This document shows, piece by piece, positions 54,785 through 64,000 of a DNA stretch of 64,000 nt. The notes beneath the pieces are model-generated. The model searched no databases, was not told the origin of the DNA, and saw only the letters and a program-made list of their open reading frames with translations. The position numbers and the translations under genes are program-made. This DNA is from an uncultured Acidimicrobiia bacterium (lineage in GTDB: Bacteria; Acidobacteriota; Terriglobia; Versatilivoradales; Versatilivoraceae): assembly GCA_963786955.1 (NCBI GenBank), contig CAWBAT010000007.1:169346-233345 (forward strand). The letters are read 5' to 3'. Within the stretch, counting starts at the first letter, position 1. The number at the start of each line of letters is the position of its first letter.

Positions 54785-56126
54785 CTAGATGGGTATACGA
54801 AGACGGGCGACGCAACCCTTGGCGTCTGTTCGATCTTCAAGAGTCAACTGGCCTGCATGGGCCTCAGCAATTTGGCGACTTAGCACCAGTCCAATGCCTG
54901 ACCCGCCGGGCTTTGTTGTAAAGAAAGGAACGAATAGGTTGGTAGTCTTCGGAAGGCCAGGCCCTTCATCGGCTACCCAGACCTCGAGTTGCCCAATCAG
55001 TTTCTTCCAACCCAGTTCGACGGTTCCTCCAGTTTCTAGCGATGCATCCACAGCATTTCGAACCAAATTGATCAGTAGCTGCTCCAACTGGTCCTTGTCC
55101 CCCTGGATCTCCAATTCCGGCCCGGGTTGGAGTTTCACGGTTAGTCGTGTTTCCAATGGGATGACGGTTCGAATCCAGGTCCCAACATCGACTTGTCGAA
55201 ATTGCGGCTGCGGCAAACGCGCCAACCTGGCATAAGCTTGCATGAACCGACTTAATGCTTCAGCCCGTGTCGCAATCACTTCAAGGCCTCGCCGCATGTC
55301 ATCTTCCCAATCACCAGGGGGTGGTTTCTGCCGGATCAATTGTTCGAGGCTTCCAGCAATTGATTTGATCGGGGTGAGAGAATTATTCAGTTCATGGCCA
55401 AGGACCCGTACCAGCCGTTGCCAAGCCAGACGCTCTTCTTCTCGCAGGGCACGGCTGAGATCTGTCAACAACAACAGCTGGTGGGGAATGCCACCTTCAC
55501 GAAAAGTGCTGCGGCGGATGGCCCACCGGCCGCTTCCCCCTGGGAAGGTTTTCGATAGAGTGGCAGCCTCTTCTCCTTGCAGGCAGTCTTCCAGTCCAAG
55601 AGAATCTGCCGGCATTCCAGTCAGTTGCTCTGCCGTGGCCGCGAGCAACCGCTCTCCGGCTCGGTTTATTAATCGAAGGTTTTGACCCACATCGAAAGTG
55701 AACACCGCCACGTCAATCTCGGCCATGACGGACCTAAGCAGAGCAGTGGCGTCCACGGCTCCCATTCGTTGCTGGCGAAGAGACTCCCCCAAGGCGTTGA
55801 CCTCATGCATCACTTCGGCCAAGGCATCATTGAAACCGGCGCCACGGGCGCGGATTGAGTAATCTTCTTCTCGCAGTGCGGCTAAGAGATTTGAGAGTGT
55901 CTGAAGCGGGAAAACTACCTTTTTCCCGCAGACGGAAAGCGATTGCCAGCCAAGCGAGGACAATGAGAAGCAATACGGTCCATCGAAATCTCGTGGTGTA
56001 ATCTCCCGTCCAAAGCAGAACGCCTGTAGCAACCACTCCCGGAAGCCCCGCCAGAATGGCTAGTAGGAAGATCCTTCTCTCAAAATTCAGCCTCGGTGAT
56101 TTCGATTTGGGATTTGGATACGACAT
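54785..56126 (-). pseudogene. Sensor histidine kinase with a frameshift at about 55920
   Basis: 2-TM N-terminus (ORF 55827-56126) joins VVFPLQTL... frame with HELNNSL, NLVRNA, DEGPG, GSGIGL; one extra A in the A5 run. Confidence 0.85.
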
Positions 56127-56270: not shown

Positions 56271-57641
56271 TCACAACCCATATCGTTGTAATCGTCGGTA
56301 GAGGGCGCTTCGGCTAACGCCAAGAGTTTCGGCGGCGCGGCTAACGTTTCCCTCAAATCGGGCTAGTGCCTTCTGGATAAGAACGCGTTCAACTTCTTCC
56401 AAGCTCATATCCTCCAAACGGGTTCCTGATTCTTGCCCCGGGGACAACCAAAGGTCTTCAGCCCTTACAATCTCTCCTGGACACATGAGAACAGCTCGTT
56501 CGATGGCGTGATCTAATTCCCGGATATTTCCAGGCCATGGGTGCGCCGCAAGACGCTGCTTTGCACGCTCCTCCATGCCCTTAACGACCTTGCGATAGTG
56601 CAAGGCATGCTGGCTGAGAAAAAGTGATGCAAGTAGAGGGATATCTTCCCTCCTCTCTCTTAATGGCGGAAGATGAATTTCAATGGTGTTCAACCGGAAC
56701 AGTAAGTCCTGGCGAAAACGTCCGCCGGCAATCTCCTGGCTCAAATTGGAATTGGTGGCCGATAGGATGCGTACATCGATTTGAATCGTCCTCGATGATC
56801 CAACTCTTTCAAATTCTCCTGTTTCAAGCACGCGTAAGAGCTTAGCCTGGAGGATTGGAGGAATATTGGCGATTTCATCCAGGAACAAAGTGCCTCGATC
56901 AGCTAGTTCGAATCGCCCGACACGATCACTTTTCGCATCTGTAAAAGCGCCCTTAACATGGCCAAACAGCTCGCTCTCAAAGACTCCTTCCGATAGACCA
57001 CCGGCATTGACCGTGATCAAGGGCTTTGCTGATCGAGACGATTTGGAATGGAGGATTTTCGCGACTAAACTCTTCCCAGTTCCGTTCTCCCCGGTGATGA
57101 GTACATTGGCGTCGGAAGAGCCTATCCGATCGATGAGCGTTTGCACCGGATGCATGGCAGGCGACTCGGCAATTATTTTTGGAAAAGTATCTTCTCTAAG
57201 AAGACGGTTCTCTTCTTCCAGCCGTTGCCCTTGACGCAAGGCCTGTCGAAGCTCAATCTGGTTTCTGAGGATGGAAAGCATCCGCGAGTTTTCCCAAGGC
57301 TTTTGGACAAAATCTCGTGCCCCTCGCTTAATGGATTCGACAGCCAATTCAACACTTCCCCATGCTGTCATCACAACAACGGGCAAAGTAAAGTCAAGAG
57401 ACTGAATACGTTTGAGAAGATCTAAGCCTTCCTGTCCCGAAGTGGTATCCCTCGTATAATTAAGGTCGATGAGCAAAAGGTCAAAATCCTGTTTAGTCAA
57501 AGCCTCGACGACGCTACTCGGTGAGGAGACAGACTTGATTTGATAGCCCTCTCCCTTTAGGAGCAGTCGAAGGGCTTCCAAGACATCGGGATGATCATCG
57601 GCAATCAGAATGGATGGATTCGGCATTTGGCTAGATCTCAT
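56271..57641 (-). CDS. Sigma54-dependent NtrC-family response regulator
   Basis: Receiver domain; GENGTGKS, GAFTDA, WPGNIREL; Fis HTH. Confidence 0.95.
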   Translation of the reverse strand: MRSSQMPNPSILIADDHPDVLEALRLLLKGEGYQIKSVSSPSSVVEALTKQDFDLLLIDLNYTRDTTSGQEGLDLLKRIQSLDFTLPVVVMTAWGSVELAVESIKRGARDFVQKPWENSRMLSILRNQIELRQALRQGQRLEEENRLLREDTFPKIIAESPAMHPVQTLIDRIGSSDANVLITGENGTGKSLVAKILHSKSSRSAKPLITVNAGGLSEGVFESELFGHVKGAFTDAKSDRVGRFELADRGTLFLDEIANIPPILQAKLLRVLETGEFERVGSSRTIQIDVRILSATNSNLSQEIAGGRFRQDLLFRLNTIEIHLPPLRERREDIPLLASLFLSQHALHYRKVVKGMEERAKQRLAAHPWPGNIRELDHAIERAVLMCPGEIVRAEDLWLSPGQESGTRLEDMSLEEVERVLIQKALARFEGNVSRAAETLGVSRSALYRRLQRYGL

Positions 57642-57709
57642 GGTTCTTATTTGACTTCTTCGTATTTCGTTATAGATTCGCAGTTCTCAGTGGCCAACGC
57701 AACTTCCAT

Positions 57710-57766
57710 CCCGAACCCAGGGTTTTTAGGTAGCATTCGAATGGCGTAGCGAAGGTCGTTTAGCAT
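57710..57766 (-). pseudogene. Orphan N-terminal stub of an ADOP-type ABC permease
   Basis: MLNDLRYAIRMLPKNPGF, matching the start of the intact permease ([18 protein letters not shown]), then unrelated sequence. Confidence 0.8.
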
Positions 57767-57860
57767 AGTGATAAGTGGTTGGTTGTCAGCCATCAGCTAA
57801 GAGCTTTTAGTCCTGGGTGTCAGTAGTCAAGAAGTCAAAAATAAGACGTCTGGTAAAAAG

Positions 57861-57893
57861 TGACTGGTCAATAGATTGGTCATCTGTTATCAT
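57861..57893 (+). promoter_or_regulatory. TA promoter/operator (likely leaderless mRNA)
   Basis: TGACTGGTCA and AGATTGGTCA boxes; TGtTATCAT extended -10 ending 7 nt before ATG 57901. Confidence 0.55.
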
Positions 57894-57900
57894 GCTTATT

Positions 57901-58134
57901 ATGAAGACAGTGGAAAAGACTATTGCGGCGAGTGAATTCAAGGCAAAGTGCCTCAAGATTCTGGAACGCCTCGATCCCCCGGGGTTGATCATCACCAAGA
58001 GAGGGCGGCCCATCGCGAAAGTGACTCCGATCCCGATTGAAGACAACCTGAAGTTGGTTGGGTCAATGAAAGGCAAAATCAAGATCAAAGGCGACCTCTT
58101 CTCAACAGGCATTAAGTGGAATGCTCAATCTTGA
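57901..58134 (+). CDS. Phd/YefM-family antitoxin
   Basis: ASEFKAKCL..ITKRGRPIAKV. Confidence 0.9.
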   Translation: MKTVEKTIAASEFKAKCLKILERLDPPGLIITKRGRPIAKVTPIPIEDNLKLVGSMKGKIKIKGDLFSTGIKWNAQS

Positions 58135-58486
58135 TACGCACATCCTTGTCTCCATGCTAGCGGGAGACATTTCCGACCGAGAGCTCCGGCTCATTCAGGG
58201 TGAACGACTAGTCATTTCTGACATCGTGCTCTGGGAACTGGCAAAAATGACGCAGCTCGGGCGTTTGGCGATGGATTTGGAAAGCTCTGAGTTTCGTCTC
58301 TGCCTACAAAGCTTGATCGTTATTCCCCTCTCACTTGAAATCGCACAGCAAAGCACGCAATTGGATTTCTCCTCTGATCCAGCCGATGAAATCATTGCTG
58401 CAACGAGTATTGTTGAGGACATTCCGTTGTTAACGCGCGATCGCCGGATTCTGAAATCGCGGATGGTTCCATTCCCAAAGAAATAG
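58121..58486 (+). CDS. VapC PIN-domain toxin
   Basis: LDTHIL, WE, DPADEIIAAT, LLTRD. Confidence 0.9.
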   Translation: MLNLDTHILVSMLAGDISDRELRLIQGERLVISDIVLWELAKMTQLGRLAMDLESSEFRLCLQSLIVIPLSLEIAQQSTQLDFSSDPADEIIAATSIVEDIPLLTRDRRILKSRMVPFPKK

Positions 58487-58631
58487 TTGGACGTTTTTGT
58501 TCTAATCACACGGGCCTTGTTTTCCCAAATTTCTCCTGCTCTCGAACCCACGTTTGCCTGTTCCTTAAACGAACCACCAACCCCGTACGACTTTACTCAA
58601 GTCACAAGCCAACTTCCGGATCTACGTCTTC

Positions 58632-58688
58632 CTGGGAGCGCGGCCGTCCCGGCCGCCACCGGAACGGGCAGGATGCCTGCGGTCCTGG
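58632..58688. repeat. REP-like double hairpin
   Basis: GGGAGCGCGGCCGTCCCGGCCGC...GGGCAGGATGCCTGCGGTCC. Confidence 0.6.
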
Positions 58689-58691
58689 AAT

Positions 58692-61112
58692 TCATTCGTA
58701 TCGCAACGCTTCCATTGGATCGACTTTGGTCGCCCGACGGGCGGGGAAGTAGCTGGCTAGAAGCGTCACTCCGGCCAGAAGCACTGAAACGCCCGCGAAG
58801 ATCGTAGGGTCCCTTGCACTCACGCCAAAAAGCAAGCTGGAAAGCGCGCGAGACAATGCCAGGGACGCTGCCAAGCCGATAGCCACACCAACCAGAGCAA
58901 GCAACATCCCTTGACGGACCACCAGCCGTATCACCCCACCCTTCTGAGCCCCTAATGCGATGCGGATTCCGATTTCGTGCGTCCGTTGTTGCACGGAATA
59001 GGACATCACACCGTAAATTCCCACCGAAGCCAGCAGCAGCGCTATGGCGGCGAAGACGCTCATCAGAAGCATGTTGAAATTTTGCGGCGCGATTGATGTG
59101 GAGACAACCTGCTCCATGGACCGGATGTTGAAGACTGGCTGTTGGCGATCGACTTTCTGGATCTCACGCTTTACCGCCTCACGCAGGCTGAGAGGTTCCA
59201 GGGCAGTACGCACAACCCAGTTCGGTGGCTGCATCTGGTTCATGAAGACCATCATTTTCGAGGGAACCTGCGGAGAGGGGACAAACAGTTCTGGCGACAC
59301 CTCGGGTTTATCCAGTGTTAACATGACGTCCCCAACTATTCCGACGATTTGACGCGGCGCATCGACCCGTTCCAGCCCCATCGAGATCGTCAAATGTTGA
59401 CCGATGGGGTCTTCGCTGGGCCAGTACTTGCGAGCCAAAGTCTCATTGATGATGACCACTGGTGACGTGTTCTCCGCGTCACCCTCCGTAAAGTACCGGC
59501 CCTGCATTAGGGGAATGCGCATTACTTTGAAATAGCTTGGCGTAATCGCGCGCCATTGGCCCCCTGCCGTAAAATTGGACCGGCCCTCAATATTGAAGTT
59601 CCAGCTGAGAGACTGGTCCAGCGGGAGACCGCTGACAGCAGCAGCGGTCTCAACCCCAGCCAAAGCTTCGATGCGCTCTAGGGCCTGGCGGTAGAAATTG
59701 GCTACTTGTGGAGTGGTGGCGTATTTCGACTCAGTCAACGACATTTGCAGGGTCAAGACGTGGCTCGGGTCAAAACCCGGTTTAACAGAACGCAAACGCC
59801 TGAAGCTTTCCATCAACAGGGTAGCCCCAATCAAAAGCACCAGCGCCAGAGAAACCTCGCTCACAACCAGCAGATTCCGAGCTCTTCGGCGGCGCGTTCC
59901 GACTGTGGTTCGGCTAGTCCCCTCCTTGAGGGTTTCGTTCAAATCAGATTTGGACGCTTCAAATGCAGGAGCCAAACCAAAAATTATCCCGGTCAGCAGT
60001 GAAATAGCCAAGGTGAAACCAAGAACTCGACCATTGATTCCAATCTCGCCAAGACGAGGGATGTTTCCCGGGTCCAGGGCAAGGAGAACCTCAAGAGCCC
60101 AAGCCCCCGTGAGAAGACCCAATGCGCCCCCAATGAGCGACAACAGCGCACTTTCCGTCAGCAACTGCCGAATCAGGCGGAGCCGACTGGCTCCAAGTGC
60201 CATCCGGACACCCATCTCTTTTTTCCTCGCCGTGGCTCGAGCCAGGAGTAGGTTGGCCACGTTGGTGCAAGCAATCAGCAACACCAAACCCACCGAACCC
60301 AGCAACAGCAGCAATGGCGGTTGAACATCCCCAACGAGTTGCTCTCGAAGCGGGATCAAGCCAACGGTCTCATTCTTCCCAATCCGGTTTGGGTATTCCT
60401 GGCGAAACTGCCGTGCAACACGGTCCATCTCTAACCGTGCCAATTCAATCGAAATGTCCGGCTTGAGGCGACCGACCACATGTAATCGGTTTGCCGGATC
60501 TTGGCTATTGGGGACACCGCGGAACAACGTCCAGAGATCCGCCTGTGCAGAGAACTGAAAGAAGGTTGGCATAATGCCGATGACGGTGTAGGTCTCACCA
60601 CTCAGGGTCAGCGGCTTTCCAAGTATATCGGGGTTGGCGCCAAACCGTTGTTTCCAGAGTTTCTGACTCAGGATCACGACCCGTTCAGCGCCAGGGTGGT
60701 CTTCTTCCGGCAGAAAGTTGCGGCCAAGGACGGGATTCACACCCACCAGCCGAAAGAAGTCGGCCGTAACGCGGATGCCGCGAAGGCGATCTGGCTCGCT
60801 GCCGCTGGCCAAATTGAAGCCGGTCTCGACAGGGTCGTAGCCAGCCATGTGCTCGAAGACCCCGTTCTGATTGATCCAGAATGCAAATTTGGGAACAGAA
60901 ATCAATGTGTTCCCTCCAACTGGATATCGCGCGTATAGTTGTATCAAGCGGTCTGGGTCCTTCAAGGGCAAAGGGCGCAACAAGACGGTGTTGACAACGC
61001 TGAAGATGGCGGTATTGGCTCCGATCCCAAGGGCGAGCGTCACCACGGCGACTGCGGTAAAGCCGGGTTTCTTGAGAAGCATGCGAAAGGCGAAACGAAA
61101 GTCGTTGAGCAT
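58692..61112 (-). CDS. ADOP-type duplicated MacB/FtsX ABC permease
   Basis: [55 protein letters not shown]. Confidence 0.95.
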
Positions 61113-61119
61113 AATGGTC

Positions 61120-61258
61120 AGTGTTTAGTCGTGGGTGGTTAGTGGTTCAAGGGTCCAGAGTCCAAAGTCCTACCTCTAAGGTCCAAAAGACAGCGGTCTT
61201 ATCGAACACAAACTCGAAAACCGGCTTCAATCCGCAATCCACAATCCGAAATCCGCAG
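61120..61258. repeat. 7-nt repeat tracts between the permease start and the TA promoter
   Basis: GTGGTTA GTGGTTC; GTCCAGA GTCCAAA; AATCCGC AATCCAC AATCCGA AATCCGC. Confidence 0.65.
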
Positions 61259-61271
61259 GGCCTGTCCGTTG

Positions 61272-61343
61272 TTGACGGTACGTTCATTTCGTCGTACTCT
61301 GTTTCTGGAAATTCCTATTTCTGGAAATTCCACTTCCTGGAAA
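61272..61343 (+). promoter_or_regulatory. TA promoter with three 16-bp-periodic operator repeats
   Basis: TTGACG-17 bp-TACTCT, then TTTCTGGAAATTCC x2 and TTCCTGGAAA. Confidence 0.7.
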
Positions 61344-61368
61344 ACCCTCTCAGAAAGGATCAGCTAGG

Positions 61369-61662
61369 ATGGTAAACCCAAAACGAAAAAGACTTACACG
61401 GCTTGTGAAACCCTTGTCCAAAGGGCAGGTCACGATTCCGATCGACTTTCGCAGAGAGCTTGGAATCTCTGAGGATACGATTTTGAATATCACCTTGAAG
61501 AACGGCAAAATCGAAATCTTCCCTCTGCATTCCCCTCGCGGTGAGCAGACGTCGCGGGAATTCAGTGAGGCTGAGATCCGCCAATTCTTAAGGGAGGACC
61601 GCATCGATACCAAGACGGCCGCCCGCGTTCGTCGTTTGCTTGGGAAAAGACTGGCCTCGTGA
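61369..61662 (+). CDS. AbrB/MazE/SpoVT antitoxin
   Basis: SKGQVTIPIDFRRELGI. Confidence 0.9.
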   Translation: MVNPKRKRLTRLVKPLSKGQVTIPIDFRRELGISEDTILNITLKNGKIEIFPLHSPRGEQTSREFSEAEIRQFLREDRIDTKTAARVRRLLGKRLAS

Positions 61663-62099
61663 AAGCGCCGGACCTCTTCCTGGACGCCTGCGTATTCATC
61701 GCTGCGGCCGCTTCCTCTCAAGGCGCCTCCGCTCTCGTACTGGAGATCTGTACGCGGGGGATGGCTCAGCCAGTGGCTACGCAGTTGATTCTCCAGGAGG
61801 CTGAACGCAACATTCGCTTGAAGTTCGATCAGGAAGTGCTTTGTCGCTTTTACCAGGATATTGCAGATTCCGAGCTTCGGCTGATTGAGCCCGCCAGACC
61901 TGACGAAATCGCGGCATGCAGCAGAATTATCGCTCCGAAGGATGCCCACGTCTTGGCCGCGGCAATCCGAAGTGAGGCAGGCATCCTCTTGACCCTGGAT
62001 CGAAAGCACTTTATGACTCCTTCCGTTCGTCATGCCAAGTCTGGTCTCGCCATCCAAACTCCGGGAGATTTTATCCGCCAGTGGGTTGATAGAAAGTAG
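61659..62099 (+). CDS. PIN-domain toxin
   Basis: LDACVFIAA, E, KDAHVLAAA, LLTLDRKHF; GTGA overlap. Confidence 0.88.
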   Translation: MKAPDLFLDACVFIAAAASSQGASALVLEICTRGMAQPVATQLILQEAERNIRLKFDQEVLCRFYQDIADSELRLIEPARPDEIAACSRIIAPKDAHVLAAAIRSEAGILLTLDRKHFMTPSVRHAKSGLAIQTPGDFIRQWVDRK

Positions 62100-62236
62100 T
62101 CAATCCAATCGCACAACCTGGGCAGTGGCTTAGATCAGCCTAGCCCCTCACCGGATTGGAGAGCTGTTTCACTCCTTACTTGTCGCCTCCACTTGTTACT
62201 GCCCCAACCTCACACCTGACACCTAATACCTGACAC

Positions 62237-62293
62237 CTATTCATATCTCAACGCTACCATCGAATCGACCTTCGTCGCGCGGCGCGCGGGATA
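62237..62293 (-). pseudogene. Orphan C-terminal stub of an ADOP permease
   Basis: [18 protein letters not shown]; no gene body. Confidence 0.85.
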
Positions 62294-62377
62294 CAGCGGA
62301 TCAGCTACAGACCACCTGCTCGGACAACGAGGTGGTGACCCAAGCCTTAGCCACCTCCAGGTGGTATAGTTCGAATC

Positions 62378-62626
62378 ATGAGCACCGTAGAGGAAATCGA
62401 GGCGGCAATTCGCTTGCTTTCGTCCGACGATCGAAGAAAGTTGTTGGAAGATCTGCCAGCACTGCTCCCGGAATTAAACGGTGACGCAATTTGGGAAAAC
62501 ATCATTCAAGACCCTCGTCCTCGGCCGTCATTTACTGCATTTTTAAACCAAATCGAATCTGAGCACCGTCGTAATCCCGAGGTTTTTCCTGAAATCCAAG
62601 AAACCGATTTCGAGCGGCGTTCGTGA
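62378..62626 (+). CDS. Putative antitoxin
   Basis: MSTVEEIEAAIRLLS...; GTGA overlap with a toxin remnant; TG-extended TATAGT -10 ending 7 nt upstream. Confidence 0.7.
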   Translation: MSTVEEIEAAIRLLSSDDRRKLLEDLPALLPELNGDAIWENIIQDPRPRPSFTAFLNQIESEHRRNPEVFPEIQETDFERRS

Positions 62627-62887
62627 TATCGAGAGCGACACCGTATTTCTGGAGCTGTATGGTCGATTGCCTGCTCCCATAAAAAAGCGGCCCGTCAGGC
62701 CTATCAAAAGTTTCGACGAGACCCAAGAAACCCCAGCTTGCATCTGGAACGATTGCACTTTGAACGGCGGGCCTGGTCGGTGCGTGTGACACTGAACTAT
62801 CGCGCCGTTGCCCTCCTAGAGGACGAGTTATGGGTTTGGGTCTGGATTGGCAACCATCAGGAATTTGACCGATGTTTTCCACGTTAA
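62623..62887 (+). pseudogene. RelE/ParE/HigB-like toxin with two frameshifts
   Basis: Reconstruction: MISRATPYFW/LYGRLPAPIK/AARQAYQKFRRDPRNPSLHLERL..WSVRVTLNYRAV..WVWIGNHQEFDR. Confidence 0.8.
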
Positions 62888-62942
62888 ATTCGTCCTTACA
62901 AACCAACGAACGCTGCACGCCTCCCTCATTACTCATCACAAT

Positions 62943-62990
62943 TCACCTTTTCTCGTATTGCAACGCCGCCATCGGCTCGACCCTGGTTGC
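62943..62990 (-). pseudogene. Second orphan C-terminal stub of an ADOP permease
   Basis: ATRVEPMAALQYEKR*. Confidence 0.7.
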
Positions 62991-63149
62991 CTGCAGTCCT
63001 ACCGTTTGTTGCCATGGCTTCTTCCGAGCATGCCAGTCTCCCTTGAGAGCAATCTTGGTTTTCCTTGCCAACTTCACACCAGCTTTGTATTCTACCCAGG
63101 AGAGTGTCGCTGGCCTCAACACCTAGAGAGATTCCTGATCTGATCGAAC

Positions 63150-63470
63150 ATGCACATTCAAGAAGTCCTTGACGAAATAGTCTCGCGTATCGTAAAGCGA
63201 TTTCATCCTGAGAGAATTATCCTTTTTGGATCCCATGCTCGGGGGACTGCCCAAACAGACAGTGATGTAGACTTGCTCATTGTCATGCCTGTTCCAGATA
63301 CTCGGCGAAAGTTGGCCACAGAGATCGATCTTTCTCTGGTTGGAATCGATATCCCAACGGATGTGATTGTGGTCACTCCCGAGGAGGTTCAACGCAACAA
63401 AGATCGAATCGGAACGATCATCCGACCGGCGATGCACGAGGGTAGAGTGCTTTATGAAAGAGCCGCCTGA
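63150..63470 (+). CDS. Minimal nucleotidyltransferase (MNT)
   Basis: LFGSHARG...DSDVDLL. Confidence 0.92.
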   Translation: MHIQEVLDEIVSRIVKRFHPERIILFGSHARGTAQTDSDVDLLIVMPVPDTRRKLATEIDLSLVGIDIPTDVIVVTPEEVQRNKDRIGTIIRPAMHEGRVLYERAA

Positions 63471-63822
63471 GAATTCATCCATTATTCGTCAGTGGGTAGA
63501 GAAAGCCGAACATGATCTCAAAAATGCTGAACATACCCTAACCTTACAAGAGGATTGCCCTCTCGATACCGTGTGCTTCCATGCCCAACAATGCGCCGAG
63601 AAGTACGTGAAAGCCCTGCTCCTGTCGCATTCATTCGATTTCCCCAAGACTGATGATCTCCGTGTTTTGGTCCAGCTTGTTTTGTCTGGAATGTCACTCG
63701 ACCTTGATATGGCTGATCTGGTGAAGCTGAACCGGTATAGCATTGAATCGAGGTATCCCGGTGACTGGGACCCGATTACCCGGTGCGATGCCGAAGAGGC
63801 AGTCGCCATCGCTCAGAGATAG
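63454..63822 (+). CDS. HEPN domain protein (possibly C-terminally frameshifted)
   Basis: FHAQQCAEKYVKA, PKTDDL, SRYP; overlaps the MNT stop. Confidence 0.85.
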   Translation: MKEPPENSSIIRQWVEKAEHDLKNAEHTLTLQEDCPLDTVCFHAQQCAEKYVKALLLSHSFDFPKTDDLRVLVQLVLSGMSLDLDMADLVKLNRYSIESRYPGDWDPITRCDAEEAVAIAQR

Positions 63823-63964
63823 TTTGCCAGATAATTAGAAAGTGCTTGCATCTTTAGGAATTTAAATTCCGTTACCAGTGATGCCAGGGAAACCATGTAG
63901 TGCCTTTGTTTTGATTTCGGACCCAATCGCTTTCCCCGGCTCGCCACTCGCCACTAACCACGAG

Positions 63965-64000
63965 TCACTCATAACGCAATGCTTCCATCGGATCGACCTT
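63965..64000 (-). CDS. 3' end of another ADOP permease (continues beyond the window)
   Basis: [11 protein letters not shown]. Confidence 0.8.
   Translation of the reverse strand, partial: KVDPMEALRYE

Follow-up and report, generated by a model that had tools for sequence, protein, structure and literature searches.

The systems described so far that most resemble the present one are gene arrays that change by recombination at conserved sequence. For type VI secretion system (T6SS) modules of Vibrio cholerae and for Rhs C-termini, the available part of one account proposes anchor-guided illegitimate recombination together with homologous exchange, with no integrase (PMC5361080). In the lpl cluster of Staphylococcus aureus, recombination at a conserved block is described, in the accessible portion of the source, as shuffling the 3′ part of one gene along with the intergenic DNA and the next gene's 5′ part (PMC2568036). 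The locus considered here lies in a 64,000-nt window, meaning the whole stretch of DNA that was analysed, from an uncultured Acidimicrobiia bacterium (GTDB lineage Acidobacteriota; Terriglobia; Versatilivoradales; Versatilivoraceae; assembly GCA_963786955.1, contig CAWBAT010000007.1, here C7, positions 169,346 to 233,345 of the forward strand). At window positions 57710-64000 it holds four unrelated toxin-antitoxin (TA) pairs, all on the plus strand, each converging on the stop codon of a minus-strand ADOP permease gene or of a remnant of one. The whole is probably best explained as a collapsed ADOP operon, in which the conserved ends of the permease genes served as crossover points that shuffled TA-bearing junctions.

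Read along the minus strand from position 64000, the end of contig C7, the array opens with tail1 (63965-64000), the final 11 codons of an ADOP permease together with their stop; the contig ends inside it, and tail1 may be either a stub or the end of an intact gene. TA1 follows, with a minimal nucleotidyltransferase antitoxin (MNT; NTP_transf_2, 63150-63470) and a HEPN toxin (63454-63822) assigned by Pfam; the toxin meets an early stop approximately 11 codons short of its homologue's end. Behind the tail2 stub (62943-62993, approximately 42 nt, decayed through 4-5 amino-acid changes and a shifted stop) lies TA2, composed of an 82-aa antitoxin without a Pfam or NCBIfam family (62378-62626) and a ParE/RelE-like toxin (62623-62887, Pfam) that carries two frameshifts here and is a single open frame in the metagenome contigs L083 and L085. 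The tail3 stub (62237-62345) is composed of 57 fresh nucleotides at its end (62237-62293) and, before them, a decayed ADOP remnant of greater age that contigs L081 and L085 also have; it is followed by TA3, an AbrB/MazE antitoxin (61369-61662) with a PIN_3 toxin (61659-62099), both from Pfam. The intact 806-aa ADOP permease (58692-61112), whose end is called tail4, scores 996.7 bits on TIGR03434 against a cut-off of 622.3; it is succeeded by TA4, a Phd-family antitoxin (57841-58134; weak Pfam match at E 3e-4, above the TIGR01552 cut-off) with a VapC/PIN toxin (58121-58486, Pfam). The last elements are an ADOP head stub of approximately 19-22 codons (57700-57766) fused to the leader of a sigma-54 response regulator of the NtrC family (56271-57641, Pfam and relatives), and then its kinase; permease elements, regulator and intergenic repeats all lie on the minus strand. 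Order, strands, coordinates and the antiparallel setting of the four pairs agree with the initial annotation, and in all four a small antitoxin gene overlaps a downstream toxin gene of known family, the gene layout of type II and type VII modules. In the TA3 promoter (61290-61335) a 14-nt motif stands in two direct copies and is probably an AbrB operator.

The permease ends are matched well beyond chance when a DNA profile made from 66 full-length ADOP genes is run genome-wide, tail3 at E 1.2e-11, tail2 at 3.1e-4, tail1 at 6.4e-5 and the head stub at 6.3e-9; a reversed-pattern control gave no match in 31 genomes. It had been proposed that the tails differ mostly at wobble positions, and this holds for tail1 against tail4 (6/6 differences at third positions) and for tail3 against tail4 (8/12 over 18 codons), but is weaker for tail2 against tail3 (4/9, with 5 amino-acid changes in 11 codons); tail2 is a decaying stub. 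ADOP paralogues are numerous in relatives, as also stated, with 19-50 tail matches in each of eight; here, by contrast, the intact gene is the sole full one in an assembly that is 93% complete, being its one match above the TIGR03434 cut-off, and the two congeners G001 and G002 have none.

Mis-assembly of repeated ADOP ends could in principle have produced such stubs; the contig does break inside tail1, and several genes of the region are frameshifted, including a histidine kinase (54785-56126) split into two frames near 55900 by decay or assembly error. Against this, the joint of tail3 with TA2 is homologous in two other metagenome contigs and the tail2-arm-TA2 joint in a third, L083 (82-88% identity), a contig of DNA run X2 covers HEPN, arm and tail1 with one mismatch and a 2-nt gap, and no stub is the same as any intact tail in the assembly; the artefact is thus scarcely credible, and the stubs are real wherever they could be checked. 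The joints TA1-tail2, tail4-TA4 and head-stub-NtrC were not seen in the independent data, no ADOP body able to continue C7 past tail1 was found on the other contigs of the assembly, and no joint of two ADOP ends was found among the contigs of two low-depth DNA runs (three joints, of low likeness). The two toxin defects, in the ParE-like and HEPN genes, may themselves be assembly errors, since the X2 contig has two letters fewer at the HEPN site and the kinase is also split.

In relatives an NtrC-kinase pair closes large ADOP operons, with an ABC ATPase directly before NtrC; here the head stub occupies the place of a permease body and of that ATPase, whose best match in the assembly is 42% identical and on a different contig. 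The HlyD-type and PadR proteins of the operon have no match in the assembly, DNA past tail1 being out of view. The head stub is considered a deletion scar whose formation also removed the ABC ATPase, and the locus is likely to be what remains of a tandem ADOP permease operon after collapse to its TA-bearing junctions. No near-identical genome was found for a strain comparison; in the congener G002 (ffh 92%) the shared epimerase is not followed by kinase, NtrC, ADOP or TAs, and G001 has no match. Content varies among relatives, with orthologous junctions filled in one contig and empty in another. The initial annotation had offered, as its alternative, that permease bodies were deleted while TA modules persisted, and the head stub bears this out. 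Taken as a sufficient account, pure collapse holds that TA pairs inserted independently, that permease bodies were then deleted while the addictive modules blocked deletion, and that stubs are passive, with no exchange between them. The fused head stub and missing operon genes agree with it, as do remnants of all lengths in relatives, the replacement of a permease by TA2 and a stub in L081 and L085, and four different joints at the edge of the TA2 promoter; TA cassettes are moreover reported, in the part of the source available, to stabilise the V. cholerae superintegron (PMC11551772).

What pure collapse leaves unexplained is found at the sites where TA2 and its neighbourhood can be aligned with relatives. 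The stubs of L081 and L085 are 91% identical over 111 nt and wholly divergent from 9 nt before the stop, and past that point L085 matches empty junctions of the relative G007 at 77-79% (79% over 168 nt), so that the stub has switched partner. Tail3 is similarly composite: its decayed 5′ part is common to L081 and L085, its last 54 nt score as an intact tail (25, 20 and 24 against 24, 23 and 21 bits), and it runs on into a junction known in its empty form from G016, of which the left half lies here and the right half beyond TA3. Contig L084 is a G007 empty junction split by TA2, with the stop codon and arm (approximately 20 nt) on both sides; in L083, TA2 and a 20-nt tail piece stand between an ATPase and a permease that adjoin in G007; and in L081 and L085, TA2 and a stub lie where G007 has a whole permease. 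In TA2 antitoxin DNA this genome is 82-92% identical to the TA2 contigs, and the flanks of four of these are 81-88% identical to G007, whereas this genome and G007 are 72% identical in ffh. The joining of a fresh 3′ half to an old remnant in tail3, the switch of partner, the second TA2 site in L083, the duplication in L084 and the identity of TA2 across genera do not follow from deletion alone, and pure collapse is accordingly judged unlikely. The proposal that conserved termini act as handles for TA cassettes fares better, as content varies, junctions recur and crossovers map inside the tail; its strictly integron-like form does not hold. Both alternatives of the initial annotation, recombination handles and deletion of permease bodies, operate. 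L081, L084 and L085 were also considered as three independent insertions, a reading that was dropped as all lie behind the same permease orthologue. ComEC is present in 5/5 genomes tested, which permits, without demonstrating, uptake by transformation.

Tandem heptamers, here called arms and absent from the initial annotation, occur at every junction of the window, starting at a stop codon or ending at a start codon. An arm with a hairpin between the converging genes stands directly behind tail1 (63884-63964; z -3.8 for 63880-63968), a decayed arm common to L083 behind tail2 (62908-62950), and two sub-arms behind tail3 (62175-62236) that form the left half of the junction empty in G016; its right half (61113-61263) reaches the start codon of the intact permease. 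Tail4 is followed by a palindromic repeat (58629-58690), presumably of the kind named REP, with 7 more matches elsewhere in the genome, and a heptamer-like right arm (57767-57836) precedes the head stub. Period 7 accounts for 167 tracts in the genome, every other period from 4 to 12 for at most 40, and heptamer tracts lie near 8/8 loci of four-helix-bundle genes; a VapBC pair lies within a run of near-identical heptamer tracts approximately 140 nt apart at G000:C4:772400-774300. In relatives the tail-to-head spacers outside the window (n=104) are mostly short and hold arms alone. A scan for open reading frames (ORFs) in the longer spacers, covering 65/115 candidates (those left out being mostly overlapping frames) and 12 nearby ORFs, found 12 four-helix-bundle genes (TIGR02436/PF05635) behind an ADOP tail, all sense, and two spacers with a TA pair, antisense in each case; this assembly has 10 PF05635 matches, all on contigs other than C7.

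These repeats raise the possibility that arm-bearing elements are the vehicles, inserting at stop codons with TA cargo and leaving the stubs as target duplications. Such a view draws on the dominance of period-7 tracts and their presence at four-helix-bundle loci, on TA3 lying between the two halves of a collinear junction, on the L084 duplication, which consists of stop and arm, and on the arm of tail1, which pairs with the arm before the intact gene better than shuffles do (z -3.2). The other 9 of the 10 arm pairs of the window pair no better than shuffles, however (in relatives, z <= -3 is reached at 24/90 junctions), a right arm is missing at TA1 and TA2, the stubs are 70-87% alike and not near-identical target copies, and stubs in G087:C5 and G178 abut their cargo with no arm between. 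Native arm cargo is moreover sense (12/12), whereas TA modules beside ADOP ends in genome records are mostly antisense (14/18, a hand count of cases met via targeted look-ups); insertion by armed elements is therefore regarded as quite improbable. Looping of every TA out of the mRNA by the arms, a separate idea, found no support in the pairing tests. The antisense bias would most simply come from selection against an autoregulated TA pair lying under the operon promoter.

Crossover within permease ends, the preferred reading, can be set out in steps. In relatives the junctions bear heptamer arms; most are empty, some contain a sense four-helix-bundle gene, and more rarely there is a TA pair with its own promoter, head-to-head with the permease stop. 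TA pairs would then enter the arms by an illegitimate or microhomology-guided event, as seen for TA3 and in L084 and presumed for the rest. The last approximately 57 nt and first approximately 70 nt of paralogues are approximately 84% identical, so homologous recombination would cross over within these ends, as the mosaic stubs indicate; such crossovers may move TA-bearing junctions between positions and genera, add a TA junction behind a tail, pushing the old tail downstream as a stub, or delete permease bodies lying between two ends. Deletions would halt at TA promoters, and TA-bearing junctions would therefore be stacked as the genome lost the operon. Under this scheme at least TA2, and probably TA4, would have come from other genera, a dedicated recombinase would be unnecessary, and the stubs would be scars still usable as crossover points.

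A dedicated integron-like system would instead require an enzyme acting in trans, for which the ADOP termini would be attachment sites and by which TA cassettes would be added one after another, to which the uniform antisense orientation in the window and the clustering of short stubs at 36-65 nt could be fitted. As the initial annotation noted, no integrase is in view: the 11 tyrosine-recombinase matches (PF00589) of the assembly all lie outside the window, DNA past the contig end being out of view, and the nearest on C7 is a 37-codon fragment at 74054, 153 kb away. A search with a core pattern that we take to represent attC found 0 sites on either strand of 57641-64000, against 0.95 expected from shuffles. 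A stand-alone 140-165-aa protein does recur inside the ADOP operons of six relatives (L207:11540-12034, L208:11088-11576, L191:539-1012, L192:5077-5514, L025:2911-3333 and L064:9011-9445), with a weak match (20-24 bits) to PF07508, the DNA-binding domain of large serine recombinases, and no NCBIfam name; a catalytic-domain match is lacking, and this assembly contains no homologue of it. Breakpoints are not fixed and cassette ends not uniform, as tail remnants measure approximately 9, 20, 37, 42, 46, 49, 50, 65 and 110 nt, up to more than 500 nt. Neither the ADOP tail pattern nor a relative of TA2 was found in viral contigs, and the array has no plasmid match. An integrative island at 3′ ends would bring its own integrase and near-identical attL and attR; no integrase was found, and the tails are 81-83% alike by blastn. 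An integron-like, enzyme-driven system acting on the ADOP termini is very unlikely.

TA modules related to those of the window recur at ADOP ends in relatives to different degrees. At least 11 loci were found in a metagenome scan with the TA2 antitoxin; among the matches listed, the homologues at 87-90% identity are antisense at ADOP junctions in 5/5 cases, with differing neighbours, and 6 weaker matches are not at ADOP junctions. In L081 a TA1 homologue stands beside a truncated TA2, in the order seen in the window. An ADOP end is touched by 5/29 TA4-like loci, with 2 more inside the NtrC-kinase pair, by 2/8 TA3-like loci and by 1/29 TA1-like loci, the last in sense orientation; among 400 genomes of the phylum, none has a match to the TA3 toxin at 1e-20. 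The NtrC-kinase junction is a hotspot in its own right, with TA4 homologues in two genomes and four-helix-bundle genes in two others (L202, L203, L034, L048). Across four relatives (141 tails; genomes not picked for a TA4 match, G007 left out, and one of the two cases known beforehand), 2/83 PIN matches lie <=600 nt behind an ADOP tail against 0.26-0.43 expected (P 0.03-0.07), and in three genomes picked for a TA4 match the count is 5/81. The expectation that TA modules are more frequent beside ADOP genes thus holds as an enrichment of approximately 5- to 8-fold for PIN, but the excess is borderline and 81/83 PIN genes lie elsewhere; from these counts ADOP ends are a moderate hotspot and not the main home of TA genes. 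Away from ADOP genes, TA1- and TA4-like pairs recur behind a few housekeeping-like genes, often converging (L123, L127, L140, L152, L154, L156, L157), which from their motifs are presumably genes such as mdh and asnS. A same-strand repeat accompanies 8/56 such loci; the one repeat inspected, in L127, begins past the stop codon of the neighbouring gene and thus does not show gene-end duplication outside ADOP.

The 245 tails found across 1.08 Mb of ADOP regions from relatives comprise 209 full genes, 11 with a body of 150-1500 nt, 6 of less than 150 nt and 19 at an edge; the 224 heads comprise 202 full genes, 6 partial ones, 2 stubs and 14 at an edge. The rate of tail stubs is inflated, because 4/6 are in regions fetched for a close tail pair or a TA; L059, one of the six, was not inspected, and the other five measure 37-65 nt. 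Same-strand tail pairs closer than 2 kb (n=8), judged by eye, comprise 3 stubs and 2 internally shortened permeases, the remaining 3/8 being set aside by spacing as half-size MacB-type pairs. Units of tail, cargo and tail stub, a count that had been proposed as a check, are present in G029, G087 (two) and G178: the stub follows an antisense VapBC in G029 and in G087, a sense nitroreductase in G087 and a sense protein of no known kind in G178. A second stub array, in G010, consists of a head stub, a sense PIN_3 pair, a tail stub, arms, a head stub and an antisense TA4 homologue. With TA and non-TA cargo among these four genomes, the tail-cargo-stub layout is general, rare and not limited to TA cargo. 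Strictly, therefore, "integron-like" is not supported, given the lack of integrase and attC, the variable remnants, the non-TA cargo and the borderline PIN enrichment.

Several further remnants were observed. Stubs of two genera behind different TA pairs (L038:4890-4930 and L190:3116-3164) have the same Met-codon change in the tail, which the intact gene of L209 also has and which may be a paralogue variant. In L044:635-860 a second, different 150-nt tail follows straight after an intact ADOP tail with no cargo, and in L189:3150-4540 a nitroreductase lies between two sets of tail, arm and palindromic repeat that resemble each other. At G000:C9:302334-304518 a winged-helix gene from the neighbourhood is present again as a partial copy, to whose end a 520-nt ADOP 3′ remnant is fused; a transposase-like ORF comes next, and a tyrosine-recombinase match lies 5 kb off.

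A number of points weigh against crossover within the permease ends. In L081, L084 and L085 a single permease orthologue precedes TA2, so these three are one lineage, and of the five TA2 contigs two may share one sampling campaign. The absence of the permease in L081 and L085 is what deletion gives, and the "missing" permease could be a gain in G007, gene order not being conserved among ADOP arrays. A crossover between a stub and a downstream tail gives the same product as an insertion, so direction is unreadable from one array, and the direction of gain or loss is clear at two sites only. No crossover, circle or intermediate was observed in the two DNA runs, which yield low-depth contigs from other organisms or strains. 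An identity of 84% over 57 nt is a poor RecA substrate, and arms turning over on their own at stop codons could look like a crossover close to the stop. As assembled, two of the four toxin genes are disrupted, weakening "addiction" unless these are assembly errors, and the 1/29, 2/8 and 5/29 proportions for TA1-, TA3- and TA4-like loci make ADOP specificity weak.

As a tentative extension, conserved ADOP ends may be a shared, enzyme-free landing pad across Acidobacteria, with the tail-cargo-stub unit as a portable cassette for any paralogue in any genus. If so, homologous recombination would add a cassette, once its cargo stands between a permease tail and a tail stub, to whichever of the tens of paralogues, and every addition would restore the target; TA pairs would spread without plasmid, phage or transposon, and heptamer arms would keep the operon readable across the insert. 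The movement of free-standing chromosomal TA pairs without mobile elements is, to our knowledge, poorly explained. At this locus and its relatives, single junctions can be followed through empty, filled and stacked states, and crossovers can be mapped inside a 57-nt gene end, so that such movement becomes a testable question; the locus also presents a large, functionally unexplained permease family as a traffic hub for small genes. No published account of TA arrays at ADOP ends was found in the literature searched, which covered few subscription papers.

Compared with known systems, the array is most like the displacement arrays of T6SS and Rhs genes as far as the available part of their description goes (PMC5361080), in which modules stand behind a conserved anchor and older 3′ pieces remain downstream as orphans; here, orphan 3′ ends are likewise stacked behind a conserved anchor end as tail1-TA1-tail2-TA2-tail3. 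The cargo of those arrays is an in-frame toxin tip with its immunity gene, in the same partial source, whereas ADOP cargo is unrelated to its anchor, has its own promoter and usually lies antisense, and a transporter family, present as tens of paralogues per genome, serves as anchor. As in the lpl cluster, again from the accessible portion of its description, the junction between tandem paralogues is the shuffled unit; unlike in lpl, where the block is central and no extra genes are reported (PMC2568036), the ADOP block lies at the gene ends, and its junctions, with TA pairs in them, leave stubs behind. The heptamer repeats found between genes in Beggiatoaceae and Bacteroidetes, as far as the consulted part of PMC4679880 describes them, are among the closest known counterparts of the arms; in contrast to heptamer-armed four-helix-bundle cassettes, the window junctions hold antisense TA pairs and no four-helix-bundle gene, and the arms are unpaired for 3/4 modules. 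Sedentary chromosomal integrons share an array of unrelated small modules with TA pairs that resist deletion, according to the available part of PMC11551772, but at the ADOP array no intI or attC was found and there is no fixed cassette boundary. By its defining features the array is neither an integron nor an Rhs array; it works like the T6SS displacement arrays.

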